DNA from: Haliotis cracherodii
Lineage: Eukaryota
Assembly (NCBI RefSeq): GCF_022045235.1
Contig: NW_027266308.1
Location: 57,536,001-57,600,000 of the forward strand
Reading direction: 5' to 3'
Length of the DNA: 64,000 nucleotides
A program made the position numbers and the translations under genes. The notes below the pieces were generated by a model. That model was not told the origin of the DNA. It did no database searches and saw only the letters and a list, made by a program, of their open reading frames with translations. Positions 28,911-64,000 of the stretch are shown here, one piece after another. Each line of letters opens with the position of its first letter. Position 1 is the stretch's first letter.

Positions 28911-30306
28911 TATAGAAAAGAGATCCCATGTAGCACCATCTCGCTATTACGACCATATGATTCTCCACAAAATGCACGCATCTTCTCAAGCATTTTTCAA
29001 AGCATTTAAAGAAACTGGGAGCATCCCATACATTGATTGACTTCAAACATCCCTTGAAAGTTACGGTAAACTTAGTTAAGTCAAACACCATTCATCCAAG
29101 GTGTTGCCAGGGTTGCGCGGGTTGCCCATTCGTCTACTGCGGCGTCACCTCGGCATTCAAGAAAACTCTGATACAGTTCAAAGCAGCGTTAAACCCAACT
29201 CACTCACTCACTCACTCGTATGTTCCTTTGACATCGAATTACCGTAGTTTATGTGTCACTTTTTACACAGACATTGAATCACTGTTGTTATAAAACACAT
29301 TTGAACATATATTTGCTTATAATTCTTTGTCAACAAATGTGATGATTTGGGCAAAATGCCAAACGTCGCGATGACACTGGAGCGAGTTTACACAATCAGA
29401 CCACTTAACAACGTTCTTCAGGTGGAGTATTTGTCATCGAAGGGAGATAATACAGCCTTGTAATTGCCTGCCTACCGCTAATCGCTGCTGAATCTACTGA
29501 CTGGGCTTGTTCTATCACCCCTCTTGAAGACAAGTGTCTGTCTACTGCCGTTGACATAGACTTGACGCACCGCATAACACACCCGATCACTGTTGTCTCG
29601 CTGTACAGACATGCCATTGTTGCTATACTGTGTGTCTTAAGGGATTTGATTTTACACTGAAGACATGCTCAGAATTTCACTTTATTAGTTACGTGTTGTG
29701 TTTCATTTATAGGGCATATATTAGGGTCGACGGACAATCAATATCAGGCTTTAAGACGAGGAGTATCACAGGTCTTCTTGTAAAAAGTGACATTTTTATA
29801 TATCATCGCTCTAGTTTCGCGTGTATCATTTCAGGTGAGCTCCAAGACAGGACAGTGGACATGTGAGTCATTCATCATGGAGGGGCTTACCTTCGCCCCG
29901 GTCCTGGTTCGAACCCGGGTGTTTGACCAGATGTGGTTCAAGTCACACCACCCTCGGGATTGCGGGTAGCCGTTCTCAGATCCGGAGGCATTGGAAAAGC
30001 AGCACCAATAAATGTGGTTTTTGTGAAAGAAACATTTAAAACATGGATTTATCTACATATAGATGTATTGTATGATTCCATATACAGTCGAACCCCCTGA
30101 CTGGAACTCACATGTGTCGAATCCCCGGTTGTGTCGAGTTCACAGTCCGGTCCCGGCACACTCTCACTATATTTATCACTACGTTAATCTGGATGAGTCG
30201 AACTGGATGTGTCAAATTCCCGGTTATCTCGAACACAATTTAAAGAGTTGAAAGAAGATAAAACTTACATTGGATTTGGGGGTCAGTAAGTCTCCCAGAA
30301 CTAAGA

Positions 30307-31007
30307 ATGGCCTTCAACACAACTGACATTACAACCCTCCAAGGGGAGTACTCGTCCCCCCTCAACTCTGTCCTCATCTTGTTCACAGTCGTGGGGGTAG
30401 TGTTGAACTTCGCGTCCATCCTTGTGAAGCTCCTGCTAAAGTTCGCTATGCCCCACACGTGGAAACTGTCCTGTCTTCTACTGGACGTGTCTCACTTCAC
30501 TCTGGGACTAGGTCTAGCGTTGTTGCTCTGTTATATCAGGTTCCAGGCGGAGAGTTTATGTAAAGCAGCAGGGTTCTTTCTCATGGTCGGCGTCCTTGAC
30601 TGCGTCAGCGTCTACCTCATATCCAACGTCATCATCCTATTTGTGCAATACCCAGAAAAGCTATCGGGGTATTCCCATTACCCAAAATGGACTATTCCAG
30701 CCATGTTGGTCCCGGAGAAGGCGTTCACTCTCCTACTCGCCCTCTTCCCCTTCCTCCCCATCCACTACTTCAACGACAACGACGACCCCTACGTGATCAC
30801 CTGTCTCCCCGTCCGGGAGACTAACGCCAAGGGAGCGGGGTATGGTGCCGCGTTGATGTTCATCTCTTGGATAGTCCTCAGCATTGCCGTCATCGTCTGC
30901 ATGGTGACCACGTTCAGACTGTGGAAGAGCTCCGGAGGGAGGATCCACGCCTCATCTCCGAACATCTGGCAGATGATGATGCTGAGTCAGGGCAAGACGT
31001 ATCAGAG
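30307..31007 (+). CDS. Exon 1 of the 7TM-pseudokinase gene (TM1-TM5)
   Basis: ATG 30307; N-glycosylation sequon NTT at residue 4; TM3 starts LCKAAGFF; ECL2 contains TCLPV (LGR/RXFP-like disulfide Cys pair); donor AG|GTTTGT after 31007. An upstream coding exon cannot be excluded because the frame is open back to 30262. Confidence 0.85.
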
Positions 31008-34000
31008 GTTTGTCTTTAATGTTTTCTTTTAAATTTGTGTTGGTGTGTATGTTCCTTGCCATTTGTCAACTCCCAATGCAATAACAGGTTTATCTCAAAG
31101 ATTAGGTGGTGCGATAAAATGGGGTTTTACGTCGCGTTCGAGATTATTGCCCTTACATAGCGACATCCTTGTGTGTGTGTGCGGGGTACAATGTATGAAG
31201 CATATTTCTGGTGTTCCCCGCCGTGTAATTGCTGGAATATTGCTAAAAGCAGTGTAAAACCATACTCACTGACTCACTCACTCACTCACTCGACTTCAGT
31301 TACACGCCAGACATGAGTTTATCCAAATAAACATATGCACATGTAATTACTGATATTTCCTCTACAATATACATACCTATATAATTACATTAAACCATCT
31401 CAGTATTATTTCTACTCAACAAAACCTATCAAAATACATGAGATCCCTCATATCCTATATATCCTGTCATAACGCAGATATTCACGAGCGATGCATGTCT
31501 TGTTAACATGAGTAACATTAATGCTACTTTGAAACTCCACAGCCGTGAAGGTCAGTTCCTATTGGTGGCATGGTACTAAAACATTATGATCGTGATTAAG
31601 ATACAGTCCCACTGAACATTTAACACCCTGACATATACATCCAAGTCTGCTGTATCTAATCCAGACAACTCGGCTTATTACAGGGAATTGCAAAATAGCT
31701 GTAGCATTACTGACTGCATTTAGTCATTATGCCTGCTGAAAGGTTGTGCCCTATTGTTAAGATCCTATGTATGGCCTGTGGAACAACGCCTTCATATTTG
31801 ATAGACTTAGTGAAGAAGTACCAACATGTTGGAAGCCTCAAAGCTACTAACAACTATGTGCTACAACTTTCAAATTTAAGTCTTGGATCCTTTTCCTATT
31901 CTGCACAAAGGTTGTGGAACGTTTTACCACAGGATATCAGACTTTCTGCTTCTCTCCAAGCCTTCAAGTCAAAGTTCAAAACCCCTCTCTTAGAAAAGTG
32001 TGCTGCACATCTCCTAGGTAGCGCTATGAAAAACTATTTTATTTTATTTTTTATTACTTTTACATGATAAACATGAAATGATCAAGTCCATCACCCTCTA
32101 CCTCCAAGGTTCCTCCTTTTGGAGCAGCTGGTGTGGATGGTGGTGTTGTTCATGACGACGGTCATAATCTACACCAACACATCTCGGCTGCTGGTACCTC
32201 AGTGGATCGCCGTCGTCGCCCTCAGTGTCAGCACCTTCTTCCACGCCGTCCTCAGCAACATCGTTACCATCCTCTGGAGCACCCTGTGTTGCAGGACGAA
32301 GCAACAGACCAAAGAACCCTACCAGAAGCTGAAGAAGCTGGAACTGCTGAAAATAGAGGTAGGTTGGATCGCTTTCCTTGCAAAACCTTTTGTGAATAAA
32401 GATTGTTCACAGGCTGTGAGTTGTACATAAGCAGTATATATTCAAGAAATGAAACCAATAAAGTAACATTTGGGTTTGGTTTGACAGTATGGCGCAGTAT
32501 GGCGCAGTATAGCAGACCTTTTCAGCAGAATCTGTAGATGGACACAGAGGACAAATTTAAACGATGCACTCTGATTGTCTGATTTTATTGCGTACAGACA
32601 CTACACGGCGTTGGGTGGAGGTTCTCAATAAAACGAAACTTGAACCTGGCGCCATACTATATGAAACAATGACACAGTGTACTCCATGATCCATATTTCG
32701 TTCAATATTCCACCCAGGCCCCCGGCAAGTTGCGCATGAAGGCCACGTGGTCTGTGGGTAAGGGCGTGTACAGGCGTGGTCTGCTGAAGGTGTACGGGGT
32801 GGACCACCTCAAGGCGTGGGCCCAGGAGATCGTCATCCTGGGGATGATGAGGAAGACACAGAGCGCCAGTCTGCTACAGTGTCTGTGGACCAACAGCGGC
32901 AACCCGTACTTCGAGACGATGACGCTAATCACTGGGGAGATCATCCCTGGCGAGTCAAGGTAAACACATTCCCACTTTCTCATAACTCCTCGATATGGTG
33001 CCTATTTTCTGTCTATGTCTAGCTTTTCAAATCTGTGACTTGTGTCAAACGGAGAAAGTGTCCGTTAGGGATAATCATAAACTGCTAGATTAATATTTCA
33101 TCAATTAAAATTTACAAACATGACAGGAATAAATGTGGTATGTATGGACGGTCAGTTGACCTGAGTCTGCCCTCAACTAAGGTACCGAAGTAACAATAGA
33201 CTACATGGTTGAAGCGATGTCAGCTTTCTTCCTTCTGACAGTAACTGGTCTGTCTCTAATTTGCATAATGTGGGTTTCAGTGACGTGCAACAACTTTCAG
33301 TTATTCAAGGTTTGCTCGTGTGTGTGCCGTGTCAGTTTATGTTACTAGTTTGTAAATCCTTAAAGTCTCATGTAAAAACCAACAAATGACAGTTTTACAT
33401 TGTTTCCTACGACGTTTGGTGTTTCCAATCATTACAATATGTTCCTTTCAACACACATCGTTGTTTTAAATAAGAAGCGACTAACGGGATCTGGTGGTCA
33501 GGCTCACTGTCTTGGTTGATGTATGTCATCGTATCCCAATTGCTTTGATCGATGATCATGATGTCAATCACTGGATTGTCTGGTCAAGACTCGATTGTTT
33601 ACAGACCGCCGTCATATAGCTGGAATATTGCTGAGTGCGGCGTTAAACAACAAACAACATGCTGTTTTAACTTGTGTTTTCTACACGTATTGGCGTATGA
33701 TGGTAGAGGAGTATTAGGAGACGCGAATGGGTGCATGACTATGAATAGCCAGGATGACTATCCTATAGCTCGCCAAGAATAAATGCCACATCTAATCTCA
33801 AACTGTCAACGAGAGCAGGCCTGTAAACAAAGATATTTCATAAGCTTAGACTTCTTTGGTGCATGAACACTATACCAAGATCTACATGACATGGCATAGT
33901 TTGTCTACAGTCTTATCCACTCTGCTTCGCTGCTTCAGTAATTCTCTACATTCTGATCAGATCGGGCCGTCAGTGTCGCCCGCCGCAGTGAAAGGGTTAT

Positions 34001-37000
34001 TGTTGAGACAGTGATCTTTGTAGGATATATGATCAGTAATCACCAGCCCTGTCACTGTTTGGTGTATTTGTATGATTAGCGATTGTATACTTGACACTAG
34101 AAACATATTGTCTTGAAGATAGGGTTTTCCATAATTATAAATAAAAATCCGTTGAGCTACTCGGTAAGTGCAATAGGTCGAGACAATGTATGTAGATAGA
34201 CACCGTGACCCGCGAGTACTACGCAGTGACACATGGTATATAGCAATGTGACCATTGACAAACAGACGAAGGGCCATGTTTTCACACACTGTTACACACG
34301 GTGACTAACTGCATGTCATACACTGAGTTATAGTATTATGCACAAGAAGGTTCGGACCAAGATCAGAAAATGTTATGTTCGGTCATGAATTAATGTACAA
34401 CTTTCATAAACAGTTTTACTTATTACATGAAAAACCTACCCTTGACTTCCTCCGCCTGTATTTAACAGATTTCCTGAGAACCTTTCCATTGACCACTGTG
34501 AAACCTGTTTCACTGACCTTGCTAGACATTGGCGTCAACCATTTCAAATACCTTCTTGATAACCATCATTAACAACCACTTACATTGGACGTACACCTCA
34601 ATGACTGCAATGATAATGATTCCATTGACTGCTTTCATTGACTACTCTGACAACTGTTACATAATGTACTATGACAATCATTCCTTTGACTGCTAACACA
34701 ATCATTCCTTTGACTGCTAACACAATCATTCCATTGACAGCTATGCCAATCTTTCATTGACTCCGTGACAATCATTCAATTGACTACTATGACAAAGATC
34801 CCATTAAGTACTTTGACAATCATTCCTTCGACTGCTAATACAATAATTCCTTTGACTGCTAACATAATCATTCCTTTGACTGCTATGCCAATCTTTCATT
34901 GACTACTGTAACAACCATTCCATTGACTGCTATGACAAAGATCCAATTAAGTACTATGACAATCATTCCTTTGACTGCTAACAATGATTCTTTTGCCTGC
35001 TCAAACTAATTCCTTTGACTGCTATGACAATTATTTCTATGGCGACCTTGACACCAATTCCATAGTTCCATGACAATAATTGCAATGATTTTTTTTAAAA
35101 TAGATTCTACTGACATCTTGAAACCCATCATTAAGATCTTTGTACTTTTGTGGCTTGCAGTCGATCAAATGGTTACACTTCTCGCCTTTGAAAAGTATAG
35201 CTTAACTTATGACTCGACGTATGAAAAATATGTTCAAAGGTATTCACAAAAGAATAAATCTCTCTCAGGTCCTTTTGTTAAAAGGTACCTCGACTTGTGT
35301 TCTGACCAACTGCAAAAACCATGATATCGTTCATCGAAAGTACAATGCTTAATTAAATGCAACCACTCTGCTACGGACAGCCAATTTCAAAATCAAAGGC
35401 GATCCTTCCAATGCCAGGTACCGCGTGAGAAAAAAAATTCTCACGGCATTTTTCTACCACGGAACTAGCTAAAACTTATTTCAGTCATGCATGTGTAATA
35501 TGCACACGTGAGCTAGGAAGGTGAAGAAGGGACAAGAAATAGCCCTGAGACAATAAGGAAGTTGTCATCCGTAAAAGCCTAATGTGTTAATTAAAAGTTT
35601 TCGTAAGTTTCATAGGCAAGTTGTGAAGGTATTTATCAAAAGGAAACCGTTGATCAGCGTGTATCTAACACAGGGTTTACATTGACTCTCTGTAGACTGA
35701 TCTGCTTCGAGTTCACCAACAGCGGCACCCTGGACGACTTCCTGCACCATCTGGACATACCGCTGCCGGAGCCGTGTCAGAGAACCATCATCCACGACAT
35801 CGCTGAGGGCCTCTCCTGCCTCCACAAACACAACATCCTCCACCACAAACTCACTTCCGCCTCCGTGTTCCTCAAGGGGTCCGTACAGGTGTGTGTACAG
35901 CTATCAGTCACAATATACAGTAAAACCCCGTTAATCCGGTCGGAAGGATTCCCACTGAAATCGTTCGGATTAGCAAATATCTGGATTAACGTTTGTTGCG
36001 TAAGAGGTAAAGCCACTAAATGTTCCGAGGATCCGCAGATCGTGGTAAAGATTTGAGTTGCACCCCTTAGTTATGCCAGGATCCACTGATCGTGATTTTG
36101 AATCCAATTTTCGCCTTAATTATGACCCTTGGTTTGTCAGTACCACATAGTGCTCGTGGTTTCCCAAAAGGCGAATGTCTACAACATATGTCTCTTTTCC
36201 GCCTAAACGTACCTGACACGCCGTGATATAATTGAAATACTGTTAAAAACAAACTAGCTATCTCGGGGTCTTTTCTGACATAGTTGAACGTGCATCATTA
36301 TTTAATAGAACGAGGAAACAAGAATAAATATCTCTAGTTAAAGGAAATACTTTTCTCCAAAAGAGCAAAAATAATCTGAGTGAGTGAGTGAGTACGGTTT
36401 TACGCCGCTTTTAGCAATATTCCAGCAACATCACGGCGGGGGACACCAGAAATGGGCTTCACACATTGTACCCATGTCGGGAATCGAACCCGGGACTTCG
36501 GCGTGACGAGCGATCGCTTTAACCACTAGGCTACCCGACCGCCCCAAATAATAATCTGAAATCAAATCGTCACATACGGCTACAATATAACAATACTGAT
36601 GGTGCCTTAACCTAACACAAGAACACACATCTCGTTAAACAACAACAACTTCTCGTGCTGTCTCGGGGCATGATATAGGATCACACTTTTAAGATCCAGT
36701 TCTAGAAATACGAAATTCTAGATACACATAATTGTAATGTGTTCAGATCTCTTTCAAATTTCTCAAACATGATTTTGTTTTTTTTATTTCTTCAATTGAC
36801 TGTTTTCTTGCGAATCCCTAATCACTACTAATTACATGGAACCTGAGACTTATCCCCTCTAAACGGCACCAAGAAAACGTAAATTCAGGGGAACCCGATA
36901 GCGCTAATGGTCCCCCAGATATACAACGCCCGGTGGTGTATCTACCAAATTATGCCTCGCACACTGCATTATTCCTGGGTCAATGGACAGGCTGAAAGCG

Positions 37001-40000
37001 TACAGTGGGGTCTTGTCAAAGGAGACGCTGTACACAATGCCAGCACTGCTGACGTATAGTCACTAAATCGAACCGGGAAGATAGGGTTTTCTGGCATGTT
37101 TCCAGCACAAGCATGGCGGGGTACCTGCATGTAGGGGATAGAGGAGAGGGGTGGGTGCCGAGGAGAGGGGTAGGTGCCGAGGGTAGGGGAGGGCCAAATG
37201 GATCTTTCAGGGACGGGCCAAGTAAAAGGTAGGATAAGGGTCATATTTACCGCACGGGATCGGCATCATTTAAGAAAAACTTAGGATTTGTTCATTTGGA
37301 TAAATGACATCGTTAAATGGATAGATACGTAGAAAAGGATAAAATGTGTCAAACAGACCGATTTTATAGGTTAACATTTGAACATGAGGAAGTCTTTGAA
37401 CCAAGCTCATTTTCATAGATGCACATAAAAGACACAAAAAGATGTACAAAAATATGGTAACACATTGACTAGCTCATGACGTGAAGTCTGCCCTTTTTAC
37501 ACACATCAGCAATATTTGCGTGTAAGAAATAGGCCAGTTGCCATTTGAATATGTCTAAGTTATATACTAATAGTTCAAAGTTTTCTGCAACTGTTAAATT
37601 AAACATTTCCAGCTGGCCAAAAAGAGCTATTATCCCACATGCCCAGGGAGAGATGGGGGCGCCGGTGGCCCGCTCGTCTGAGGCGTCGCAATTTGCTGTG
37701 TAGAGTTGCGTCCCTTGGGCACGCCAGAAACCTATGATTGTGATCTCGAATCCCAGTCCGCCCCCGTTATGTTTCTAGGTTTGTCAGAACCATACCTGTG
37801 CTCGTGGGTTTCACCAAAGTGGTAAACGTCTGGGACCTGCATCACTTCGAGCTCTCCTCCCACACTATGCTGACACGCCGTGATATGACAGGAATACTGT
37901 TTCATCAATTAATCACTCTATTTCTAAAAAAAACACCCACGGTGGTAATAGTTTGGAAGATGATGCAAATTTGCATTTTACAAGATGTCGGTTATACTGC
38001 ACAAACATCTGGCGACATCTAAACATTTTGCTTGACACAGTCAGAATCAAAGGTTTTTGTCTATTATGCATATGAATTTTGCAGGGTTGTTTTTTTTTAA
38101 AATTGGAATTCTGGTATACAGTAATATTTCTGTATTTTATGATATTAGGATACTGCGTATATTTATATGACAAACATTTGGATATGAATTCATGGAAAGC
38201 TTCACATTTAAACAGGTAGTGGAGTTCATCGGTGATAGCTGGCGGCATACACAGTTTACCATGTCCTTAATTCTCTATCAATACCACGCCACCGGCCCAC
38301 TTTGACAGGTAGATTATGCTTACAAGTTTTATATTTCAGAATAGGATAATAAATTTGTATAGATAGGAGAAGAAAGTTTTCCAATGACGGGATATCTTTT
38401 AAGTATTGATAATAATACCGTTTTGAATTTTTCTCGATGTCATATCTCCAATTTTGATAAAACTGATCTTTTAAAGTCCTTCCACCTGAGCAATTAGCAA
38501 CTGGCTTAAAACGCTTTATGGGTCATAAAATACATTGGATAGACCAATAAATTAAATATTTGCCTGGTATTTCTTATCCAGATATTTTATTGATTATCAG
38601 ATAAAAATTGCCAAATGAGCCAACTTAGGGATAAGTTGCGATAAATTCGGTGCAGGTCCGGGTTAACTAAGTTTATGCCAGAAGCCAACTACCAGTTTAG
38701 CTGCATAAATCGATAAGGGTACCTACCTAGTTCTCCAGACCCTTGAAGATCCGGGGTAGAATAGGTCTTCAATAACCCATGCTTGCCGTACAAGGTGACT
38801 ATGCTTGTCGTTAGAGGCGACTAAACGGAAGGGGTGGTCAGGATGGCTGACTTGGTTGATAAATGTTATCGAATCCCAATTGCGTGGATCGGTGATCATG
38901 ATGTCTGGTCCAGACTCGATTATTTACAGCCCGCCGTCATATAGCTGGAATAGTGCTGAGTGCGGCGTTAAACAACAAATCAATCAATCAATCACAATAG
39001 AACGTCCGTACCTTTGGTTTGTCTGAATAATGAAAATCGGGTGGTCATAACTTACAACATAGACTTGCTGTGTCATCTTGTTTGCCCGGATGGTATGGAA
39101 CATTGATCAATGTAAGTCTACTGAAACTCGATTATGTACAGGTCAAACAACAAACAAACAAACAAACAAACCTAGTTCTCCATAAAACCATAAAATTTGG
39201 GGTTGCATTTCTAAGACCACAGGGGGCACGGGGGGCCCAGTCGTGTAAGGCGCCGCGATTCGCTGTGTAGAGTTGCGTCCCTTGGGCACGCCAGAAACCT
39301 AAGATTGTGTGGAATCCCGGTTTGCCCCGAATATGTCTCTAGGTTTGTCAGCAACATATCCCTGCTCGTGGGTTTCATCGAAGGGGTAAACGTCTGAGAC
39401 CTGCATCACTTCGGGCTTTCCTCCCACATTTTGCTGACACGCCGCGATATGACTAGAATACTGTTAAAAGCGGCGTTAAGCCCAACTCACTCACTCACTC
39501 ACTCACTCACTCACTCACTCTAAGACCACAATCTAGTTTAAGGAATGTTGAATGAATCTTTTCTATTATGGTCAAATTTTCGTATACCCATAAATCACAG
39601 CCCAAAAATAATGTTGTTGATATTTACATCAAAGGCCCTATGTTCAAAGCGGCGTTAAACCCAATTCAATTCATTTTTGGAGATCGGAGGAAAACAGGAG
39701 AGTTTTTAGGAACGGAGATAGAGGTAGACGCCAAGACATTCGAACACTCCATATAAGGAAGTGATGTATCGATAATCTTTTGAATACGAGAAACCGCCAA
39801 AAAGAAACATGAAGTATTAAGTTCGAGAACCTACACTCTCGAATCTGTAAATTGTACCGTACGGACATCGGGTTTTCAAGCTATTACTATTTTTACTATT
39901 TTTACTTTGACTTTAATACTGTATGTGAATTTATTTCGGTCTATAACAGTGATATGTGCCAAACGAAACAAATTCATACGTTTAGTCTTTCAAGACCCAG

Positions 40001-43000
40001 CGCATATTATTCGCGTCTTCGTGTATCTACGTTATCACAAGGCTCTGTCAGCTTTAGATTCAAATCCTTTTTCAAGATTGCTATTTACACACAATTCGAG
40101 TTTGAAGATTAAATCCCTTTTTTTCTTGTAACTCTCCTATCATCCCATAGTAAATCTTTCCTCGATTACCCCACAGTGGCGCAGCGCCACCTGCCGGCCC
40201 TGACCTGCTCCGCCAATGTATGTATTGTCTACGCCCACAGGTAACCTACACTGCTGAAATATCAGGAGATCAAAACATGACTGGGATTCCCAAGGAGTGA
40301 TCTATCTGTCTAAGTTCAATATCAGTAACCTTATCTGATGTATTGCCAATATACTTTTCCGAATAGGCTGAAAACACAACCCTTTGTGTAAATAGAGCTT
40401 TGAGAGTATTACGGGATAAAAGTGAAGTGTTGTTATCAAGAACTGAGGATATATTTTTCCTACTGTTGTATTAACAAATCCCTGATAAATTGTTATCTTT
40501 ATATTGTCAGGGTGGCATTAAGATTATTGCACAGTTATACCCCATGAGATTGTTGTTGTTAAACCACGGACATATCGAGAACCCGTTGGAATTCCGGAGG
40601 AAAATAAGTCCCCATTTTCAAGGCTTGTCATAAAAGCTGACTAAAGAGAATTTGATGGTTAGGTTCGGTGACCTTACTTGTCATTGCTTTGTTTGTTTGT
40701 TTGTTTGTTTGTTGTTCAACGCCGCACTCAGTAATTTTACAGCTATATGACGGCGGTCTGTGAAATAATCGAGTCTGGACCAGACAATCCAGTGATTGAC
40801 ATCATGAGCATCGATCCACGCAATTGGGATCGATGACATGTATCAACCAAGTCAGCGAGCCTGACCACCCGATCCCGTTTGTCGCCTTTTACGACAAGCA
40901 TAGTCACCTTTTACGGCAAGCATGGCTTGCTGAAGACCTATTCTACCCCGGAATCTTCACGGGTCTACTTGTCATTGCAGCGATCGTTGCTCATGATGTC
41001 CCGGGCGGCTTAAACAACATTCCCACATTCACATTAGGAGATCAACATCTTATTTTTATATACACAAAAAGGAAGAGTACACACAAAGTGTCCCATCATT
41101 ACGTAGCCTCAATCTTAAAAGTAATTCCACATAGTGCTCGTTATTTTTGTTATAATATTCTGCTTGTATTAATTGATCTGTCGTCCAAGGAAAGTCATGA
41201 GTCACCACTTTTCGTAAGAAAAAGATATACATACATACTGATGGAGTGAGTCAGTGAGTGAATATGGTTTTACGCCGCTTTTAGCAATCAGAAATGGGCT
41301 TCACACATTGTACCCATGTCGGGAATCGAACCCGGATCTTCGGCGTGACGAGCGACCGCTTTAACCACTAGGCTACCCGACCGCCCCTATACTGATGGAA
41401 AGAAATAAGGGAACACTTAGTTTTAGACACCGTTAAATGATGTGACATCATGGGTTCCACGCCTTGGAAACAATGCACACAAACACATCTCAACATTTGA
41501 TTCTGACATGTGTTTAATTTGTATGCGCGCTATTTCAAAGTAATGAAAGAGAAGCTAATTTTCTAATATTTTTTATTGTTCCCTTATTCGTTTCCATCAA
41601 TAAATGAAGAAAAGAAGGACAGAAAGGTGTTCATGATTACTTTCTTTATGGGATCAATGTAAACGTTTCAACATGACTGTGTGTATCTTGCAGTGCATGG
41701 TGTTGCGAGCAGCTCTTGGCGACTTCGAAGCTGCCCAGATCTATGGCTCACTACAAGGTGGCTCATCGTCCAGCTCACAGGTCAGCAAGAAACAGTTCTT
41801 CCTCCCGGACATACGGGCATTTGCTCTCGTTGCCTTGGAGATAATTGGATACGTGTGCAAAAAGAGAGAGGATGAAAAACAGCCATTCAGAAAAACCCGA
41901 AGTGAGATTGTGATAAGCTCCCAGAAAAGTGGCAATCCAAAATCCCGTGAATCTGTACAAGACCTGGCACATAAATCCCGTAGTTTAGACGAACGAGCTA
42001 TTCTAGGAGAAACTGGATTAAATAATATTCCTCCATTTGGTTCTCTAGTAAATGTGAAAGAAGTTGATCCACACCCCAACGTTCCGGAGGAACAAGATGC
42101 ATGGGCACAACCTGTGACGTCTGTAAGGATTACAGGTAAACGTAGTGATGCGGGACAGTCTGAGCATGATCACTTTAGTCGACATGCTACTGATGATGGA
42201 CGCTGGCAGAAGGGGAGTGTTCCTTATAACTCCCCTAAAGGACATGCCCAGGATACACCCACGCCAGTGTTCAGGGCGGAACCTCCACTATATGAACATG
42301 ATTATGAGGAGATAGAAGAAATCACGGAACAAATCCAAAGAGATCAAATTGTCATTCAGCAAATCCGTTACCCACGAAAAGATGACAATAGGTCAGATGA
42401 AAGGTCCTGGCGAGATTATCCGAGCGGTGCGCATTATTCGGTACCTGCAGATGTAAGTAATCCTCGTTTCATTGACCAGACTCAGAAACCTAATTTACCC
42501 AATAGGAACGCAGTAGGAGGAGGAGGCGTGTTTTTCAGGTCAGACCCGCTCCGGTACTCAGCCTCCTCTGTCAGTACCTTGGAGGACATCGAGGAGGACC
42601 TCCCGGAGGTGACTGGGGGAGGCGAACATGTTGCTGCCACCTTGAAGGATCTATGGCTCAAAAAGGAGGCAGATAAGAAGGAACGGTTACTGACATCCTA
42701 CAATGAGAGAATGAAAAAGGAGTTGAAAGATGTGTTTTCCAGGAGGAACAGAAAGAGGAAAGACCAGGGCGTGTCCAGAGAGACAGTGCAGGAAATCTCG
42801 CGACCTTTGTCAGCACGGAGTTACCACGACAATGGCACAACTGTTGTTGTTCCATTCAGTGGAGGTGAAAAGGAGACACATTTTGGTGATAGTAGACAGA
42901 AAAGACCACAAACTGCTCGACCCGCTCAACGGCAGATGTCTGAAGGATCGGGTAAGCCTGTGCCTCGGCGTCCTGCACCTCCACCACCACCACGGCCTGT

Positions 43001-45692
43001 GACAGCAGCAGCCACGACTCGTCCTCAAACACCAAGTCACGGAATAAAGAAAGCACAGGCTAGAACAAAACTTAAAAAAGTATTGGGGCAGAAGCAAAGT
43101 TCTGTTTTAACCAATGCCAACTTAAACAATACTCGGGGTCAGGGTGCATCCATTGTTGAAATGAAGTACGCATCAGTGAAAAAGATTCCCCAAATAAAAG
43201 ACTCCTTCAAAGGTTCTGAGGCTGATATGGATTGTGAACGCCTGCCACCTCCGCGTCCACAAACTGTTCATCCCAAACCTCCTAAAGTTGGGCATTTTTC
43301 CAGTTTCAGCAGCAATGATAGTCTAGGCAGCAGTTTCTATAAGCACTCTCCCAGGAAGGCAGACGTGTCCCTTACCAGCGGAGAGCTCACGTCCTTGTCC
43401 TCTCAGGCAGATACAACTCTACCTGAGCACGATGTGGAGGACGTCATTGAACTTCCTCCAACGTACGAGACTAAAGGTGCACAAAAGGGGGGAAAGATTA
43501 TTGATAGTGGCTTTGATAGTGCATCTATTGCAAGCGAGAATTCTTGCGATGTTTCCATGGTTGACGAAAGGTCCTGTTCCTGTCCATCTGGAAGCTACAC
43601 GACTGATACGTGTAGCTGCCAGTGTTCCATCACACCAACATCAGGCATGCATACCAAACCACTGTATGACAGACGGACATCATGGAGTAAAACCGATTCG
43701 TTTTCATCCTATGACTCTACAGACCTGGATCAAAAGCTTGAGAGACTCCGTAATGGAGATGTGCGTCCTTCAAAGGATGTGATTGGTCCAGATGAACAGT
43801 ACCCTATGATGGCTGCTGCAGCCAAGTCTAAGACTGCTCATCCAACACAGTGCAGTCCACACCAAAATAAGAAACATCTTGGTAAAGTTGTGACCAAGAC
43901 CCAGCGCACGAGGAGACATGATTTCGGATCGGCGAGCAAACGCTACAAGGAACTCCGAAAGAAGGGCATTCCTCTGAGAGTGTCTGTTGTATCCAGTGCA
44001 TCGTCCCAGGATGTGTCTGATGCCACAGATTGGGACTCATACATGGAATCTACAGCTGAGGTCATTGAAGAGGAGGACGACAGTGTTATTGATGATAATG
44101 ATGATGCAATTTTCAATGCTCTTGACTCGCAAGGGGTCTTTGAACCCTCAGACACTGATTCCTCCATGGGTGTGAGACCTCTGCACCACACGAGGCCCGT
44201 GGCAGTGGTACATGGAACCAAAAGACCTCGCGATACAGACAATAGAACCAATGCAATGATCCTAGAAGATATTATCCGTGAACTACCTGATGAAATAACT
44301 GGGGCATCTTCAATGGATGATGAAACACAGTCTTTCCTGCATCACTCTGAACCTAAAGCTGAATTCAAAGATGAGGAGGAGATTGTGGACATGGCTATAG
44401 AGATTCCGTATAAGCCATCGTCAGTCGTGGATGCGGAGTTAGTTATTGACAGACTGTTCACAAAGAGGAATACGCTGAAACACAAGGGAAGCCTTCAGGA
44501 TGTGATGGACCCTATTCTAGGGTTTGATGAAAATCTTATCAGAGAGTTAGCCAGCCCCACGTCTTCCTCTGGTAGGCAGACGGACCTCCCTGTACAGATG
44601 TTGAAGGGAGTGACTAAGACCCATGTGCAGGCGTGTAAGGAACTGTCCAGTAAGGTTCCATTGGTGCCCTTCTCGGAATTGTTTCCTGCTACTAATGGTC
44701 AGTTCAGGGTACTCAGGTCAAGACTAGAGCAGGTGGGAAACTTTGGAACAATTGGGAAGCAGGTGAGTCCACTCTACATGCCTCAAACATGGCTTATCAC
44801 ATACTGACAACACCTTTCAAGTAAAATACAGTTACAACTTTCATGTAAAGTTATTCTAATTCCACAGTCCCTTTGGTAGATATAGGGAGATCTGCACTGG
44901 AGGCCGTACTCAGCAACATTCCAGCTATATGACGGCGGTCTGTAAATAATCGAGTCTGGACCAGACAATCCAGTGATTGATATTATGAGCATCGATCCAC
45001 GCATTTGGGATACGATGGCATGCATCAACCAAGTGAACGATCCCGTTAGTCACCTCATACGACAAGCACAGTCGCCTTTTACGGCAAGCATGGGTTATGG
45101 AGCGCAGATAGTCCTGATATACATAAGACGCATTTTTCTGGTTGTAGTTTTGATGTTGGTATCCATGCCCCTACGTGCACGTTGCGCTCTACATCCCTGG
45201 TGAGCCTTAAGGGGTAGCCTAGTGGTTAACGTTTTCACTCGTCACGCCGGAGGTCCGGGTTCGCTTCCCCCATTTACTCTCTGACTATTTAATTTCGAAA
45301 TATGTCTTCTTTTTTAACTGGTTATGTATCAGAAATATGTTTGTTGGTTTTCAGGTGTATATTAATGAGTGAGTGAGTATGGTTTTATGCCGCTTTTAGC
45401 AATATTCTAGCAATATCATGGCGGGGGACACCACAAGTGGGCTTCACACATTGTGTCCATGTCGGGAATCGATCCCGGGTCTTCGGCTTGACGAGCGAAC
45501 GCTTTAACCACTAGGCTATCCGACCGCCCTCGGGTGTATATTAAGCATTATCCTTACAATACATGTTTTACATGTAACGATCTGTTTCAGCTGTTGGACT
45601 GTGTCCAGCTGTGTTGGGTGAGTGACAGTCCGCCCTCGGCGTCCGAGCTGGTCAGTAGACTACTGGACACAGTCACGGAGACTGAACTCTGA
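30307..45692 (+). CDS. Spliced gene for a 7TM receptor-like/pseudokinase fusion protein, 1518 aa: join(30307..31007,32109..32358,32718..32959,35696..35888,41694..44762,45591..45692)
   Basis: Six exons with GT..AG boundaries and matching phases (2,0,2,0,0). Total 4557 nt = 1518 codons + TGA. Exons 1-2 give seven hydrophobic helices; exons 2/3-6 give kinase subdomains in the correct order. Confidence 0.85.
31740..32020 (+). mobile_element. L2/CR1-group LINE 3' fragment in intron 1
   Basis: PSYLIDL..SFSYSAQRLWNVLPQDIR..SLQAFKSKFKT is a typical L2/CR1 ORF2 C-terminus. Confidence 0.7.
32109..32358 (+). CDS. Exon 2 of the 7TM-pseudokinase gene (TM6, TM7, CC motif, linker)
   Basis: Acceptor ctacctccaag|G completes an Arg codon; encodes FLLLEQLVWMVVLFMTTVIIY and WIAVVALSVSTFFHAVLSNIVTILWSTLCC; donor GAG|GTAGGT. 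Confidence 0.85.
32718..32959 (+). CDS. Exon 3 of the 7TM-pseudokinase gene (kinase N-lobe)
   Basis: Acceptor ccacccag|GCC; GLLKVY (VAIK-type Lys, 32787), KAWAQEIVIL (alphaC Glu, 32826), SLLQCLW (HxNIL-equivalent); donor AG|GTAAAC. Confidence 0.82.
33471..33659 (+). mobile_element. 5'-truncated family B copy
   Basis: Matches the 3' two-thirds of B. Other partial or old copies at ~24825-25050, 44900-45096, 48806-49040 and 57605-57790. Confidence 0.75.
34600..35075. repeat. Degenerate ~23-bp minisatellite in intron 3
   Basis: ACAATCATTCCTTTGACTGCTA(TG) repeats. Confidence 0.8.
35696..35888 (+). CDS. Exon 4 of the 7TM-pseudokinase gene (hinge, alphaE, degenerate catalytic loop)
   Basis: Acceptor ctctgtag|A; LICFEFTNSGTLDDFL and DIAEGLSCLHKHNILHHKLTSASVFL match kinase subdomains V-VIb; donor CAG|GTGTGT. 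Confidence 0.88.
36378..36545 (-). mobile_element. SINE family A
   Basis: Reverse copy; TSD AATAATCTGA at 36370 and 36550. Confidence 0.85.
37654..37900 (+). mobile_element. SINE family C
   Basis: Matches the 39222 copy. Further copies at 2647-2899 (-), 3193-3366 (+), 14655-14889 (+) and 36130-36250 (partial). Confidence 0.8.
38090..38620 (-). mobile_element. Decayed LINE 3' fragment
   Basis: DELHYLFKC..YPNIIK resembles the same CCHC tail; AT-rich and degenerate; limits approximate. Confidence 0.55.
38738..38993 (+). mobile_element. SINE-like family B
   Basis: GACCCTTGAAGATCCGGGGTAGAATAGG...GCGGCGTTAAACAAC followed by (AATC)n. Confidence 0.85.
39222..39519 (+). mobile_element. SINE family C (tRNA-Leu-like head with a long A-B box spacer)
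   Basis: TSD CTAAGACCACA at 39211 and 39520; (CACT)n tail. Confidence 0.85.
40182..40198 (-). promoter_or_regulatory. Candidate CTCF site in intron 4
   Basis: Reverse strand reads GCCGGCAGGTGGCGCTG, one mismatch from the CCASYAGRKGGCRC core. Confidence 0.3.
40688..40965 (-). mobile_element. SINE-like family B inserted in an older B relic
   Basis: 13-bp TSD TACTTGTCATTGC at 40675 and 40966. Confidence 0.88.
41246..41387 (-). mobile_element. SINE family A (internal deletion)
   Basis: TSD ATACTGATGGA at 41235 and 41389. Confidence 0.85.
41694..44762 (+). CDS. Exon 5 (3069 bp) of the 7TM-pseudokinase gene: DFE, alphaF, then a ~930-aa low-complexity insert
   Basis: Acceptor atcttgcag|TGC; RAALGDFEAA (subdomain VII) and PDIRAFALVALEII (subdomain IX); 1023 stop-free codons; donor CAG|GTGAGT. 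Confidence 0.88.
45366..45529 (-). mobile_element. SINE family A
   Basis: TSD GGTGTATATTAA at 45354 and 45533. Confidence 0.85.
45591..45692 (+). CDS. Terminal exon 6 of the 7TM-pseudokinase gene (subdomain XI and ETEL tail)
   Basis: Acceptor ctgtttcag|CTG in phase 0; reads LLDCVQLCWVSDSPPSASELVSRLLDTVTETEL*, matching the kinase CW..P..RPS motif. This frame is not in the ORF track. Confidence 0.82.
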   Translation: MLDCVQLCWVSDSPPSASELVSRLLDTVTETEL

Positions 45693-46058
45693 ACTAACAC
45701 GATGTCTTAGGCACCTGAGCTCAGCCCGCTTCTACAAGACCATCTTAGCGCCAGTACTGCCGAAAGTTGATGTCAAATATGGCTTACGACCGTCTTGGTG
45801 CCAACACCTCTGTGCGGAACGGGTCCCTCGGTCCGGTTCCACAAAGCGATCTAAGTTGATCGTAACTCCCATACTTTAACGAAGGATTACGATCATCTTA
45901 GCGCTAACATGGCTTTGTGGAACGGGTCCCTGGTCAGCAGATTACAGGACAGCGAGACGGAGACTCTGAATCTCACACCGCAACAGTTCCCGTCATTATT
46001 ACAAATGTGATCATGTCGACTGTATATATATCATGGTGGTTCATTCAAAGATGTACAT

Positions 46059-46322
46059 AAACATGTATTGTGATTACAACATATGCTGTGCATGTATTTG
46101 TATTCAGAGGTAATGTTTGACTCTGGGTCGCCTAGCCTTGGACCAAAACATGTATTGTGATTACAACATATGCTGTGCATGTATTTGTAATAAGAGGTTA
46201 TGTTTGACTCTGTGTCGCCTAGCTTTGGACCAAAACATGTATTGTGATTACAGCATATGCTGTGCATGTATTTGTAATAAGAGGTTATGTTTGACTCTGT
46301 GTCGCCTAGCCTTGGACCAAAA
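46059..46322. repeat. 87-bp tandem repeat, three copies
   Basis: Units start at 46060, 46147 and 46234. Confidence 0.9.
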
Positions 46323-48468
46323 CCACTATAAGTATTATGTTCAAAACACCATTTAATGGTTGCAGGATGAAGTCTTTGATGTGAAGTTTGACGTTGGTGT
46401 AACTAGAATGCGTGATACATCACAGTTTGAGAGCTGATTACCCTAGTGTGACAGATCCTTACTTACAATACCAAGTAGTTGTTAGATGAATGACTGTTCT
46501 CCACTTTTCATATATTCATGAAAAGTTTCACCAAACTGTGGATTTATATACCTCGTCATATTCATTTCACATTTTTTATTAAGGCGCCCTGAAACTAAAT
46601 ATAGACAAATCGCAATTCTCTTTTGTGGCAAAACGATTCTAAACTTTAGTCTTTGCGGGTAAGATCGCATAGCATCATTGAAGTGTCCCTTACAAATTAA
46701 ACCCTTGTGAGTTTACAAATTAGCTGTTATATGGAGTTGAAACCAATAGAACCTGCCAATACGTGGATGGCCTACGACTGATCAAATTAGGTCCAAAGTT
46801 TATATTTTGTACTTGTGGCTGTAACTTGTGTCTAAACTTTACTAGCAAAGCCTCTACAGGAGATGCAATGATAGGCACATACATAGCATGACTGTCTTGA
46901 ATTTGTTTTTAGATACATAACATTCTTCCTCCAGAAAGATGAATGAGCACTATGACACTGATGTACTGATAGACATCCCCTTCAACACAGTAGCGCGTGC
47001 GTGCGTGGCTGCGTATACTAGTCCGGACTTATGCCGGTTTCATAGTGCTACTCACACGAATACCCCTCCCAGACACAGTATACTAGACTCCGAGCCGACC
47101 AATCCTTGTAATGCCTAGCGCCAGGCACGGTAACAACGTGTACCATCTTTAAACGTGTTTTCGTATGACGCTGCCAGAGGATCGAACCTCCGACCTGTGT
47201 ATCATATTGTTTCCATCGTATTTTTGAAATTGAAACTGTGTCCATGATGGTGCTGCTTGTATGTCTGTAACTTGTACCCTGAACCCAGAGAGGAACTGAA
47301 CCCCGGTCTTCAGCCAGAGGGGCCAACGCTTTAGCCACGAAGCTACCCGACCCCATTCATGTACTGAAAAGTGCAGAATCGGTTTTCAAGAGATATGCGC
47401 CACTTCCACCATATAACCTTTATGGGCATTGTGTTGGTTATGATTGACTTGACGTTTGTAGTACAAATAATGATATATGTATCTTAAAACTAAACACATA
47501 CAAAGCTTTAGGAGTTTCTATGGGATAATACATTTTGTCTGCATTTAAAGTTCAAACCACCGATTATGTTTTGCGCATCCATTACTCTCAACGTTTTTAC
47601 TATATTCACATTGTATGTATAATCACAATATGCAGTTGTATCTTTTTAGCAGCCTAAGAAATTCAGGTCTTTTAGGACTAGCACTAGTCCTCTCTGGACT
47701 AGCGGAAACTTATTTTCTCTAGTCCTCAGAATGTGTAGCTCGTGCTGCTTGAACCAGACAAAAATGTTTAATATGTTTACATTTTCTGTCACTTGTATTC
47801 AGTTTATTGCAAACTTGAAGCATTGAGAACTGGTTCAGAATTGTAGTCCTAGTTTATGAGGACCACCATCACTGGATTTTTACTTGTCCTCAACACAATT
47901 TAGTTGTCTTAGGCTAGCGGACTAGCTGGAATTTCGAATGCTGCATGGATTATTTTGTTATATACTTTCTGTACCGTCCAGATCTACCCTGTGGTATTAT
48001 TGTTAGATATGTGATTTTATACACATCTACGTACTTTATTTATGTATATACCCCTTATTAAAATAGCTATACATTCATTGGCCATTAATGTTTCAATAGT
48101 CTCAGGACAATCTTCCAGGACCAAGCGGGTTGACCCCTGCATCCATACAACCTGTACCATAGAAAATCTTGTCTGTCAATCTAAGTGATATCAGTCACAA
48201 CTGAAATAGGAAGAAGTAAAATCTCAATAGGAATGGCCATATGGGGTTACCTATTTAAGCATGTACAGCACCTTGGCTTAAAGACCGGGTGAATAAACAT
48301 AGACTCATGGAGTGTTGTGACTTTGCGGTTCTTCCTCAGCAGTTAAAAGGTATAAGGAATGGATGAGTTGGATTTAACTCCACATCCAGTAGTATTTCAT
48401 TTATATTTGTCTGCTTAATGTGGGAGGAAAGCCAAAAGAGATGCAGGTCCTGGAAACCCACAACCATG

Positions 48469-52382: not shown

Positions 52383-53661
52383 TGGTCATTTATCATGGAG
52401 AAGGTAGGGGAGTCAGTGAGATTAAGGAGGTTTCGGGATCATGAAAAAATGACACAGCCAAAGCGGGGGAGGGGGGTCGCCAAAATTTATCTGGGGTGCA
52501 TGAAAAAATGACATAGTTCTATTTTTTCAAATATTTTTTTTTTTATAAATTTGAACATTATTTAGGGACTGGTCATTGATTATAGGGATGGGGGGAGGGG
52601 GCATGAACAAAAATGTCAAACATGTTTTGGGGGTCATGAAAAAATATTACCTAAAACGGGCGACCAGCAAGATATGATAGTCCTCTGACTAGTATCACCC
52701 ACTACTACCCCACACCACACCACCACACCACCGCAAAAAATGACCTGTCTCAATACCATGTGGTTTATCAGCAGCTGAGCAGAGACCTGTGAGAATTATT
52801 ATCATAAGAGTTTGTGATGACAGAGGAGCAAGCAACTACACTGACACACAAAAAAATGTCATCAACTTTAACTCAAAATCAGAAAAGATGTGGTTTTGTA
52901 CTCAAGTCAATCGCCAAACAAATCGAATGAGATTCAAACCCAAAGGCGACATTGGTATGTTTGATTATCTCATGCCTAAATACCCAGAATAACCTGATTT
53001 GAAAAAAAAATCAAATGCGAGTTTTCAGAGTGTGATTTCTTACATTATTGCAAAATTGTTTACTCTTCCGCTTGATAGAGCTGCAAATATCAGTAAAACT
53101 GCTGTTGTGGTGTTAAGTAATAATCACTTAGTCAATAATCACTCTCACTCACAGGTCCCTGGACATAGATGACAAAAGCTTGTCATGACAACTGTTCAAT
53201 TGATACACATTATTATTAACACCTCTCCATCAATGTTAAAAATATTTTGTTCATCAATCTGCTAAATATACATGCATGATACAAGCTGGCATAACCTAGC
53301 TATGGTTTCTAGCATAAAAACAAGTAAACGGCAGTCATGCACTCATTTGGTTCATTTGTATGGGGCTAACATAACATTTCCTTATGTCCATCAAGAATTG
53401 AGCAGTTTACAGGTTTCATTTGGTGCAATGATTGGAGTGTTTTGTAGATGTTTCATAATTCTGTGTTTAATTTGAATGTGCCTTGATAATATTTAGAGCT
53501 CTTGATACAATGCAATCCCAGCACTATACGATTATTATGAACTCGGTTATTTCTAACCCTATGGGTAATAAAAAACAATACTTCAAAAATATATAAAAAA
53601 CTAGTGCTATAAAATCTGAAATCTATGAGCCATGCATGTAAGCAAACCTTATTATTTTCAT

Positions 53662-54443
53662 GCTCCAACTTGCCCCATTATAACACAAGCTGCACCTGAA
53701 CTTCACAGCACCACCTGCCCCTTCATAACACAAGCTGCACCTGAACTTCACAGCACCACTTGCCCCATTATAACACAAGCTGTACCTGAACCTTACTGCA
53801 CCACTTGCCCCATTATAACACAAGCTGTACCTGAACTTCACAGCCCCACTTGCCCCATTATAACACAAGCAGTACCTGAACCTCACGGCACCATTTGCCC
53901 CATTATAACACAAGCTGTACCTGAACCTCACGGCACCACTTGCCCCATTATAACGCAAGCTGTACCTGAACTTCACAGCACCACTTGCCCCATTATAACG
54001 CAAGCTGTACCTGAACCTCACAGCACCACTTGCCCCATTATAACGCAAGCTGTACCTGAACTTCACAGCACCACTTGCCCCATTATAACGCAAGCTGTAC
54101 CTGAACTTCACAGCACCACTTGCCCCATTATAACACAAGCTGCACCTCACGGCACCGCTGCCCCACTTCACAATCTGTCCCTGAATGAGTACTCAGGGCA
54201 CCACTGCCCTGCTTTAACACAATCTGCCCCTGAAGCTCACAGCACATCTTGCCCTGCTATAACACAAGCTGCCCCTGAACCTCATGACACCACTGCCCCC
54301 AATAACACAATCTGCCCCTGAAGCTCACAGCACATCTTGCCCCGTTATAACACAAGCTGCCCCTGAACCTCATGGCACCACTGCCCCCAATAACACAATC
54401 TGCCCCTGAAGCTCACAGCACATCTTGCCCTGCTATAACACAA
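53662..54443. repeat. 45-bp minisatellite downstream of the BTBD9 stop
   Basis: Unit CACTTGCCCCATTATAACACAAGCTGTACCTGAACTTCACAGCAC, with diverged units at the right end. Confidence 0.92.
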
Positions 54444-56570: not shown

Positions 56571-56961
56571 TCAGTGCTCCACATCCATCCGATCAGCTTC
56601 GGGTGCATCTTGCTGTGAGTAGTCTGGTCCTGCGTAAATGTCAAGAACAGGGTGCTGTGGACTGCGGCGAGGGCTCCTCTGGGATCTGTTTGGGCTGATG
56701 CCCTGCCCCCCCTCCGCTCCCTGGAGCCGCTGGGGGCTGGGCTGACTGGAGGGAGCATTAGACACACTGGGGCTCGGGGGGCTGTTCGGGGGACCCACAG
56801 TGAGCGAGACATTGGCTACAGAGTTGCTGAGAGAGCTGAGAGAAGTATCGGCTGGACATTCAAAGTGCACACAGTGGAACACTTCATTTGCGGTGTTGTG
56901 AGTGCCAACAATCCTGACAAAGGCAATTGGTTCAGGTTCAAAGGTGATGGTCTGCCAGGAT
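56571..56961 (-). CDS. BTBD9: BTBD9 last coding exon
   Basis: cttcag|A TCC TGG; SWQTITFEPEPIAFVRIVGTHNTANEVFHCVHFECP, then a Ser/Pro-rich tail and stop at 56571. Confidence 0.93.
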
Positions 56962-63651: not shown

Positions 63652-63875
63652 TGAGAGTCACCTGGAGGGGCCCTTGCCGTCCTTAGACGACTTGGGCTTC
63701 CCCCAGTTCCCCTTCTTCCCGCGAAAGGGCTGCTGAGAACCCTTACCGGAGCCCTCAGAGCGGGGCTTCTTCCCGGAGGAAGAAGGACCCGACCCCTTAG
63801 GCCTGCCGGACGCAGCATCCTGGGGCGCGCTCCGCTTCGGAGCGGCACCCAGGCGCCTATGCAAGGACCCCACAA
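61719..63875 (-). pseudogene. DIRS pol: reverse transcriptase, damaged RNase H, adenine-methyltransferase-like domain
   Basis: GFYSRIFLVPKK, IDLKDAYLHVPI, LPFGLSSAP, YLDD; RNase H remnant TDNTT..N.LADALSR; MT-like DLFAT..AYAYPP..APMWP..WY. Confidence 0.9.
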
Positions 63876-64000
63876 GATCCAGTGTGTGCCGAGAGGCCTC
63901 GGCAGCCACAGCGGCCTGTTGTTCCTTCAGAACCCCAGGGATCTTGTTATTAAACAGGGTCCGAGCAGACCAAGGCTGCGAAAGGAGCACCTCCTGATTG
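63658..64000 (-). CDS. DIRS ORF1 (gag-like), basic C-terminal end
   Basis: Lys/Arg/Gly-rich ORF with a QPFRG-type motif, overlapping the start of pol as in DIRS1 elements. Confidence 0.65.
   Translation of the reverse strand, partial: NQEVLLSQPWSARTLFNNKIPGVLKEQQAAVAAEASRHTLDLVGSLHRRLGAAPKRSAPQDAASGRPKGSGPSSSGKKPRSEGSGKGSQQPFRGKKGNWGKPKSSKDGKGPSR

Follow-up and report, generated by a model that had tools for sequence, protein, structure and literature searches.

An abalone gene predicted to join a GPCR-fold membrane domain to a pseudokinase split by a loop of about 910 residues

The stretch of DNA analysed here, called the window below, comprises 64,000 nucleotides of the Haliotis cracherodii genome (contig NW_027266308.1, positions 57,536,001 to 57,600,000, forward strand). 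A reading of its positions 27000-49000 yields six plus-strand coding exons with canonical AG/GT ends and matching phases, which together encode 1,518 residues with no internal stop. [quoted passage not shown] The parts of the gene are as follows, with TM1 to TM7 denoting the transmembrane helices.

30307..31007, plus strand: exon 1, with the start codon, TM1-TM5 of the GPCR-fold 7TM domain, no ectodomain, and the cysteines of TM3 and the second extracellular loop (ECL2)
32109..32358, plus strand: exon 2, with TM6-TM7, a conserved Cys-Cys, a short linker and kinase strand beta1
32718..32959, plus strand: exon 3, the kinase N-lobe, with a degenerate glycine loop, beta3 Lys341, alphaC Glu354 and a conserved, family-specific beta4-beta5 insertion
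35696..35888, plus strand: exon 4, with the hinge, alphaD, alphaE and a catalytic loop reading HHK instead of HRD
41694..41858, plus strand: start of exon 5, with beta8, DFE instead of DFG, a short activation segment without APE, and alphaF
41859..44591, plus strand: middle of exon 5, the insert of about 910 residues after alphaF, predicted to be disordered
44592..44762, plus strand: end of exon 5, where the folded C-lobe restarts with two helices and a third, short one, among them the equivalent of the F-loop/alphaG
45591..45692, plus strand: exon 6, with alphaH-alphaI (conserved Arg absent), the C-terminal ETEL and the stop codon

Exon 4 gives an above-cut-off match to the Pfam kinase entry PF07714 (E 2.7e-7). 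The same layout is found in the RefSeq model LOC124140967 of Haliotis rufescens (P0001, 1,515 residues), which agrees at 98% over exon 1. Exons 1-4 are linked in that model and in single open reading frames (ORFs) of three transcript-sized Logan contigs of 6.0-6.5 kb (P0008, P0020 and P0029), whose 1,738-1,900 residues hold six or seven TM segments, kinase, insert and tail. When the animal's own genome was probed with exon 3, the best candidates (four were scored) revealed this locus only and no paralogue; a distant 7TM probe again returned only this locus among its best candidates. Upstream of the start codon, a short stretch between AG and GT (29836-29863) is maybe a 5' untranslated exon.

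Exon 5 (41694-44762, 3,069 nt) is bounded by AG and GT, has phase 0/0 and reads as 1,023 codons in one frame. It lies within a frame of 1,056 codons (41637-44807) which is by far the longest plus-strand ORF of the window, the next having 256. The first-pass annotation of this DNA, made from its letters alone, had noticed more than 900 open codons in a single 3-kb exon, and these lengths bear it out. The other two plus frames contain 44 and 95 stops across the exon, and the probability of 1,023 stop-free codons at the local base composition is about 1e-24. The alphaF sequence, PDIRAFALVALEII, lies at 41805-41846 and the sequence LCWVSDSPPSA in the exon at 45591-45692. The stretch of 938 residues from alphaF to the PF motif is indeed rich in Ser, Pro, Asp and Lys, as had been stated (S 11%, D 8%, P 7.5%, K 7.4%, R 7%, E 7%), and no tandem repeat was found in the exon 5 insert.

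Retention of this exon in transcripts was assessed with four public runs (X1, X5, X7 and X11) mapped to 35500-45900; they come from related species and were guessed to be RNA by the tool. In X1 one contig of 5,637 nt comprises exon 4, the whole of exon 5 and exon 6 with gapless contig coordinates, and in X7 one of 3,438 nt runs gapless through exon 4, the entire exon 5 and exon 6. In X5 and X11 both junctions are bridged by separate contigs, with exon 5 in pieces and small gaps between them. The splice from exon 4 to exon 5 is present in all four runs, and single spliced contigs retain exon 5 whole in two of the four. Exon 5 is present in transcripts, since spliced contigs show the joins from exon 4 through exon 5 to exon 6; no joint inside it appears among the 15 of 1,588 joints listed. 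Transcript coverage of 41694-44762 had been set as a test of the insert, which in the dominant contigs is not spliced out.

The exon is also under purifying selection. Among the 37 exon-5 differences from X1 that were listed, drawn from 40 of 249 table rows, 22 are synonymous, 15 non-synonymous and none a stop, giving a ratio of non-synonymous to synonymous change (pN/pS) of about 0.2 (p 2e-6); the two indels listed are of 3 nt and 6 nt. From the open frame, the spliced contigs and the low pN/pS it follows that the insert is coding, transcribed and constrained. The boundaries of exon 5 are shared by six of ten exon-like ORFs from other records, and a seventh has the same 3' end; those six start at the beta8 acceptor and enter an intron just past a common G-x-Q/K end.

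By conservation and by AlphaFold confidence (predicted local distance difference test, pLDDT, of 84-94), folded structure restarts at about residue 1429 (nt 44592), and the disordered insert therefore comprises about 910 residues (41859-44591). The first-pass interval of 41860..44660, or about 930 residues, was right in placing the insert after alphaF and slightly too long, its last 24 or so codons being folded; the accompanying proposal that exon 6 helices complete the fold would apply to alphaH-alphaI, the F-loop/alphaG region being encoded at the end of exon 5. In an AlphaFold model of P0001 residues 316-1515, alphaE and alphaF have pLDDT 80-93 and residues 1426-1505 pLDDT 84-94. The insert region of the same protein is mostly below 50, a few short helices excepted; the disorder supposed at first is thus predicted, with islands of conserved motifs inside. 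A model of the Nucella orthologue that ends just after alphaF has pLDDT 30-49 over the alphaF region. The gain for alphaF when the C-terminus is present is suggestive, because the two models differ in both protein and alignment.

Comparison with known structures points the same way. Residues 55-1197 of the long model superpose on residues 357-609 of LIMK2 (Z 13.7, root mean square deviation (rmsd) 4.1, 154 aligned), and in a fold search of 48,161 chains the best 50 listed were all protein kinase folds, nearly all matched as far as model residue 1192-1200. When the last 95 residues are compared as a profile with 23 canonical kinase domains, exon 6 aligns to alphaH-alphaI (probability 61%, E 8e-5); nine of nine insert windows scored 1.5% or less against the same kinase profile. 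Packing of the C-terminal helices back on the C-lobe, which AlphaFold had been proposed to check, is predicted, and both the superposition and the exon 6 alignment agree with it. The C-lobe would then be completed by alphaG-alphaH-alphaI. A global profile alignment does not single out which exon-5 helix is alphaG (probability 6%); the candidates are the first and the second long helix behind the insert, and with either choice the insert falls between alphaF and alphaG.

The kinase part has the bilobal fold and the features of a eukaryotic protein kinase, namely beta3 Lys, alphaC Glu, alphaE, catalytic loop, DFG-like motif and alphaF. Residue conservation was assessed in an alignment of 32 gastropod and bivalve proteins (A1), from which P0033 was excluded as a single-exon fragment. 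The beta3 Lys is retained in 31 of the 32, and the alphaC Glu and DFG Asp in all of them (as DFE in 31). At the HRD Asp site, by contrast with these, no protein has Asp; Asn is found in 30, Lys in one (the abalone) and Arg in one. The catalytic-loop Asn, the glycine-rich loop (one Gly left) and APE are all absent from these mollusc rows, and absent too is the alphaH-alphaI Arg. The roles of such residues in active kinases, including the pairing of that Arg with the APE Glu, are well known. Judged by these residues, the domain is likely to be an inactive pseudokinase. Because APE and its partner Arg are gone, the substrate-docking face has been lost where the insert emerges, so that the earlier description of this region as the substrate-binding lobe is apt for position but not for function, the APE/P+1 region having disappeared. 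Saccoglossus retains both Asp and Asn of the catalytic loop. The deuterostome members P0087, P0189 and P0190 have a second, smaller expansion of 20-30 residues in the activation segment.

The closest matches in sequence and fold are TKL kinases (LIMK, LRRK2, RIPK, TNNI3K, MLKL) at about 20% identity, with scores too close together for a parent family to be named. In a quick tree, 18 family rows fall on one side and 18 canonical kinases on the other (Shimodaira-Hasegawa-like approximate likelihood ratio test, 99). Owenia, whose model lacks alphaE, was omitted, and the tree cannot name the parent kinase since its outgroups, protists among them, were picked for intact motifs. As had been anticipated, domain searches report only a truncated kinase: in ten of ten kinase-bearing proteins the best Pfam stretches end by position 152 of the 260 or so in the Pfam model, and Pfam has no family for the mollusc 7TM domain, exon 5 or exon 6. 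All mollusc members carry in exon 3 (32718-32959) a near-invariant beta4-beta5 insertion of about 20 residues with a short helix. It is among the best-conserved parts of the protein, and is a candidate contact with the 7TM domain or the membrane.

Exons 1-2 encode seven hydrophobic helices, for which the model gives a pLDDT of mostly 85-98 and predicts the fold of a GPCR. Foldseek matches the model to GPCRs (E 9e-6); it aligns with spider rhodopsin (6i9k; Z 21.7, rmsd 3.3, 275 aligned) and also with a C. elegans leucine-rich-repeat-containing GPCR (LGR; Z 20.9) and RXFP1 (Z 19.7), scores which do not separate the classes, so that the mollusc model by itself does not single out LGRs. Within A1 the TM3 cysteine is present in 28 of 32 proteins and the ECL2 cysteine in 31, and the Cys-Cys after TM7 is conserved; the class A microswitches DRY and NPxxY are absent from the 32 mollusc rows. 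In the hemichordate Ptychodera an NPxxY-like HPILY survives. The 7TM domain of the Ptychodera member (P0087) has RXFP1 as its best match (E 1.2e-14), followed by other LGRs, and profile comparison of the 7TM domains connects those of molluscs, of other lophotrochozoan-type hits and of deuterostomes at 91-99.9%. On these two grounds the domain is likely to descend from a type-C LGR that has lost its ectodomain. The Diadema member has a 7tm_1 match below the cut-off (E 2e-6). There is no LRR or LDLa match in Pfam, the ectodomain is absent from every full-length member inspected, and in Haliotis and most full-length relatives no more than about 25 residues precede TM1. At the other end, the kinase begins about ten residues past TM7. 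ORFs of about 320-450 residues containing the whole 7TM domain were also seen (P0065, P0071, P0072, P0074-P0076, P0081, P0084, P0085, P0088-P0090, P0095, P0101 and P0102). Several of them stop just past a beta1-like motif; the intron after beta1 seems to be conserved in other animals with a single-exon 7TM domain.

The layout is found in gastropods, bivalves, cephalopods, a brachiopod, an annelid, a bryozoan, hemichordates and a sea urchin. When 1.84 billion representatives were searched with a profile, 378 hits resulted, of which the best 150 were examined. Octopus, Argonauta, Lingula, Owenia, Watersipora, Ptychodera, Saccoglossus and Diadema all have the 7TM domain, degenerate kinase, insert after alphaF and C-terminal block, the Saccoglossus model being without TM6-7. 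Approximate insert lengths are 737 residues in Octopus, 698 in Argonauta, 803 in Lingula, 1,033 in Owenia, 369 in Watersipora, whose member has 961 residues in all, 798 in Ptychodera, 875 in Saccoglossus and 551 in Diadema. In A1 the C-terminal block follows an insert of 907-1,351 residues in 31 of 32 proteins, that of Solemya (P0015) being truncated. Insert position and length in orthologues had been singled out for checking: the site after alphaF is the same in six phyla, with lengths from about 370 to 1,351 residues. No member without the insert was encountered, either in searches covering 278-2,652 residues or in the best 150 of the 378 hits, and the shortest insert is about 370 residues. 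Among 30 species-identified hits there was no arthropod, nematode, chordate or cnidarian, which is not evidence of absence from those groups. The ESM Atlas returned generic 7TM and kinase clusters only. Conservation is uneven along the protein, median identity to P0001 in A1 being 33% for the 7TM domain, 64% for the kinase as far as alphaF, 22% for the insert and 43% for the last 90 residues.

Within the poorly conserved insert the following motifs stand out.

43050..43079, plus strand: conserved basic amphipathic helix motif, A-R-x-x-L
43299..43409, plus strand: conserved serine-rich motifs SSFSSNDS and SLTSGELTSLSSQA, candidate phosphosites
43503..43520, plus strand: DSGFDS, with DSGF in 31 of 32 A1 rows
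43941..43985, plus strand: helix motif R-Y-x-x-L-x-x-x-G-x-P-x-R, with a near-invariant Tyr

DSGFDS fits DSGxxS, the consensus of beta-TrCP-type phosphodegrons. In 31 of 32 molluscs the last four residues are ETEL or ETEV, and ends of the ETEL type conform to the class I PDZ-binding consensus.

On balance we favour the view that spliced transcripts of the gene yield a single protein of about 1,518 residues, in which a pseudokinase split by a loop of about 910 residues stands behind a 7TM domain of GPCR fold, and that this protein works as a non-catalytic receptor-scaffold. The 7TM domain would sense or anchor, and a change in its bundle would be passed on to the pseudokinase some ten residues after TM7. 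The pseudokinase would act as a conformational hub and possibly as an ATP-bound switch; ATP binding is possible because the beta3 Lys, alphaC Glu and DFG Asp are kept. The loop, replacing the normal substrate-docking face, may be a docking platform, whose short motifs, once phosphorylated by other kinases, would recruit partners. DSGFDS would control turnover, and the C-terminal ETEL could tie the receptor to a PDZ scaffold.

Other explanations start from the same features. The protein might be an orphan GPCR with the usual heterotrimeric G-protein signalling, its pseudokinase and insert only a regulatory tail for desensitisation or trafficking. The GPCR fold, the TM3 and ECL2 cysteines retained in 28/32 and 31/32, the conserved cytoplasmic residues of the TM5-TM6 loop (W206, R212, W221, Q222, G229) and the coupling of LGR relatives to G proteins, known from structures, would all suit such a receptor, but the mollusc members are without DRY and NPxxY, conservation is much higher in their kinase part (64%) than in their 7TM domain (33%), and a kinase about ten residues past TM7 could crowd the G-protein site. 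We regard this as unlikely. Also unlikely in our judgement, and slightly more so, is a ligand-independent membrane anchor, in which a decayed LGR 7TM domain would fix the pseudokinase and disordered scaffold to the membrane, for example in cilia, sperm or junctions: the disulfide pair and the buried, near-invariant P136, P148, W188, Y255, H279 and W290 exceed what a passive anchor needs. That no full-length member inspected has an LRR/LDLa ectodomain, that the mollusc 7TM domain has diverged past Pfam recognition and that 31/32 proteins end in a PDZ-type motif are nevertheless what such an anchor would lead one to expect.

The two remaining alternatives concern the kinase itself. An atypical active kinase, with an insert controlling substrate access as in MASTL/Greatwall, could appeal to the retained beta3 Lys (31/32), alphaC Glu and DFG Asp (32/32 each), to the catalytic-loop Asp of Saccoglossus and to the MASTL insert, which is reported to govern substrate specificity (PMC10503413). 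It is very improbable given that the catalytic Asp is missing from 32/32 molluscs, along with the catalytic-loop Asn, glycine loop and APE. Hardly credible is that the long frame is an annotation artefact (a retained intron, repeat or mobile element) beside a simply truncated kinase. Partial detection of the kinase by Pfam and the 22% identity of the insert might be explained in that way, but the insert lies whole in spliced contigs and is free of tandem repeats. The artefact reading was rejected on those contigs, the pN/pS of 0.2, the exon boundaries conserved in six of ten ORFs (with the 3' end of a seventh) and the common site in six phyla.

Several points weigh against the receptor-scaffold model itself. 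Every functional step in it is one that we infer. The join of exons 1-4 comes from protein records and ORFs; the transcript runs, as noted, are of related species with a guessed RNA status, none of the listed records holding exon 5 is registered as RNA, and minor internal splicing of that exon may occur. AlphaFold is possibly biased to the kinase fold, closure was judged from pLDDT and structural superposition, the two models compared come from separate orthologues, each with an alignment of its own, and neither model is confident in the N-lobe (pLDDT about 40-65). Saccoglossus, one of 18 family rows, has the catalytic-loop Asp. Since DSGxx[ST] occurs in five of eight inserts across phyla (by chance 2-8% each) and the C-termini of Lingula, Watersipora and Diadema depart from the class I PDZ consensus, neither motif is family-wide.

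Elsewhere in the window, two long overlapping minus-strand ORFs of 735 and 815 residues occupy 61213-63926, one with a reverse transcriptase (RVT_1, E 1e-20) and the other with a weak integrase SAM-like match (E 3e-4), a pairing to be expected of a tyrosine-recombinase (DIRS-like) retrotransposon. A minus-strand frame of 169 codons at 56574-57080 resembles an exon from a BTBD9-like gene, possibly the next gene along, and has no Pfam match. Minisatellite and low-complexity arrays with periods of 24, 87 and others (11724-12694, 16000-21000, 34637-35035, 46059-46323 and 53629-54318) are the cause of spurious ORFs in the window, and the introns hold many copies of short interspersed repeats.

Set beside other animal proteins, the family resembles type-C LGRs (RXFP1/2, GRL101-like) and glycoprotein-hormone receptors in its 7TM domain, a kinship traced through the Ptychodera match and the profile links. 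It differs from them in having no LDLa/LRR ectodomain, in its pseudokinase tail and in the lack of a sequence-level 7tm_1 match in molluscs. With TKL kinases and pseudokinases (LIMK, RIPK, LRRK2, MLKL, IRAK3), which supply the best sequence and structure matches of the kinase part, it shares only about 20% identity, and unlike them it has lost the APE region and partner Arg. MLKL, like the abalone kinase, lacks the HRD Asp.

Long inserts in human kinases have been reviewed (PMC10503413). According to a survey of 497 human kinase domains (PMC6930252), the longest insert between alphaF and the F-loop is 13 residues (HF~FL, BMPR2), between F-loop and alphaG 46 (FL~HG, MP2K2) and between alphaG and alphaH 109, CDC7 having about 100 at the last site. 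At any site the maximum there is the 548 residues of the MASTL/Greatwall activation loop, and RPS6KC1 has 480 between alphaD and alphaE (PMC6930252). Plant RLCK XI kinases are reported to have about 280 between subdomains VII and VIII (PMC9992409). Like all of these, the abalone family has a long disordered insert with scattered conserved motifs looped out of the kinase fold; unlike them, it has the insert between alphaF and alphaG, mostly 700-1,350 residues long and above the human maximum at any site.

Fusions of GPCRs to kinases are also known. PMC12716839 places them in choanoflagellates (GPCR-TKL/K, GPCR-TK) and sponges (GPCR-TK), not in other metazoans, with none functionally characterised, and GPCR-TKL fusions are reported from oomycetes and amoebozoans (PMC12716839; PMC6033456). 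The abalone family is likened to them by architecture alone, one chain that runs from a 7TM domain into a protein-kinase fold on the cytoplasmic side, and differs in its apparently LGR-derived 7TM domain, missing catalytic residues, giant insert and bilaterian occurrence. 'GPCR-TMKs' are mentioned in sea urchins and Felidae by PMC10463195, without traceable identifiers, and the sea-urchin member of the present family may be counted among them. No published description of this family or its insert was found, including by six gene identifiers, in a literature search whose coverage leaves out most subscription journals. Both as a GPCR-kinase fusion and as an insert-bearing kinase, the abalone gene is an unusual, conserved variant, and the site and size of its insert are outside the human range.

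A bolder proposal is possible, though doubtful: that these proteins are an undescribed receptor class predating the protostome-deuterostome split, LGRs without an ectodomain that would signal free of G proteins through a tethered pseudokinase switch. Their motif-bearing loop of 400-1,350 residues would then be the longest known intra-domain insert, doing in cis what in ordinary GPCRs falls to arrestin and to tails phosphorylated by G-protein-coupled receptor kinases (GRKs). Whatever the mechanism, a kinase C-lobe here tolerates an insert of about 1,000 residues where human kinases allow fewer than 50, and the split-kinase layout has persisted from the bilaterian ancestor onwards. Routine annotation misses the family, giving no 7TM match, half a kinase and the label 'uncharacterized'. 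It extends GPCR-kinase fusions, confined in one recent survey to protists, choanoflagellates and sponges, to a single-copy mollusc gene and five other phyla, and makes it possible to test, in tractable animals such as Aplysia, oysters and sea urchins, whether a GPCR bundle couples directly to a pseudokinase.

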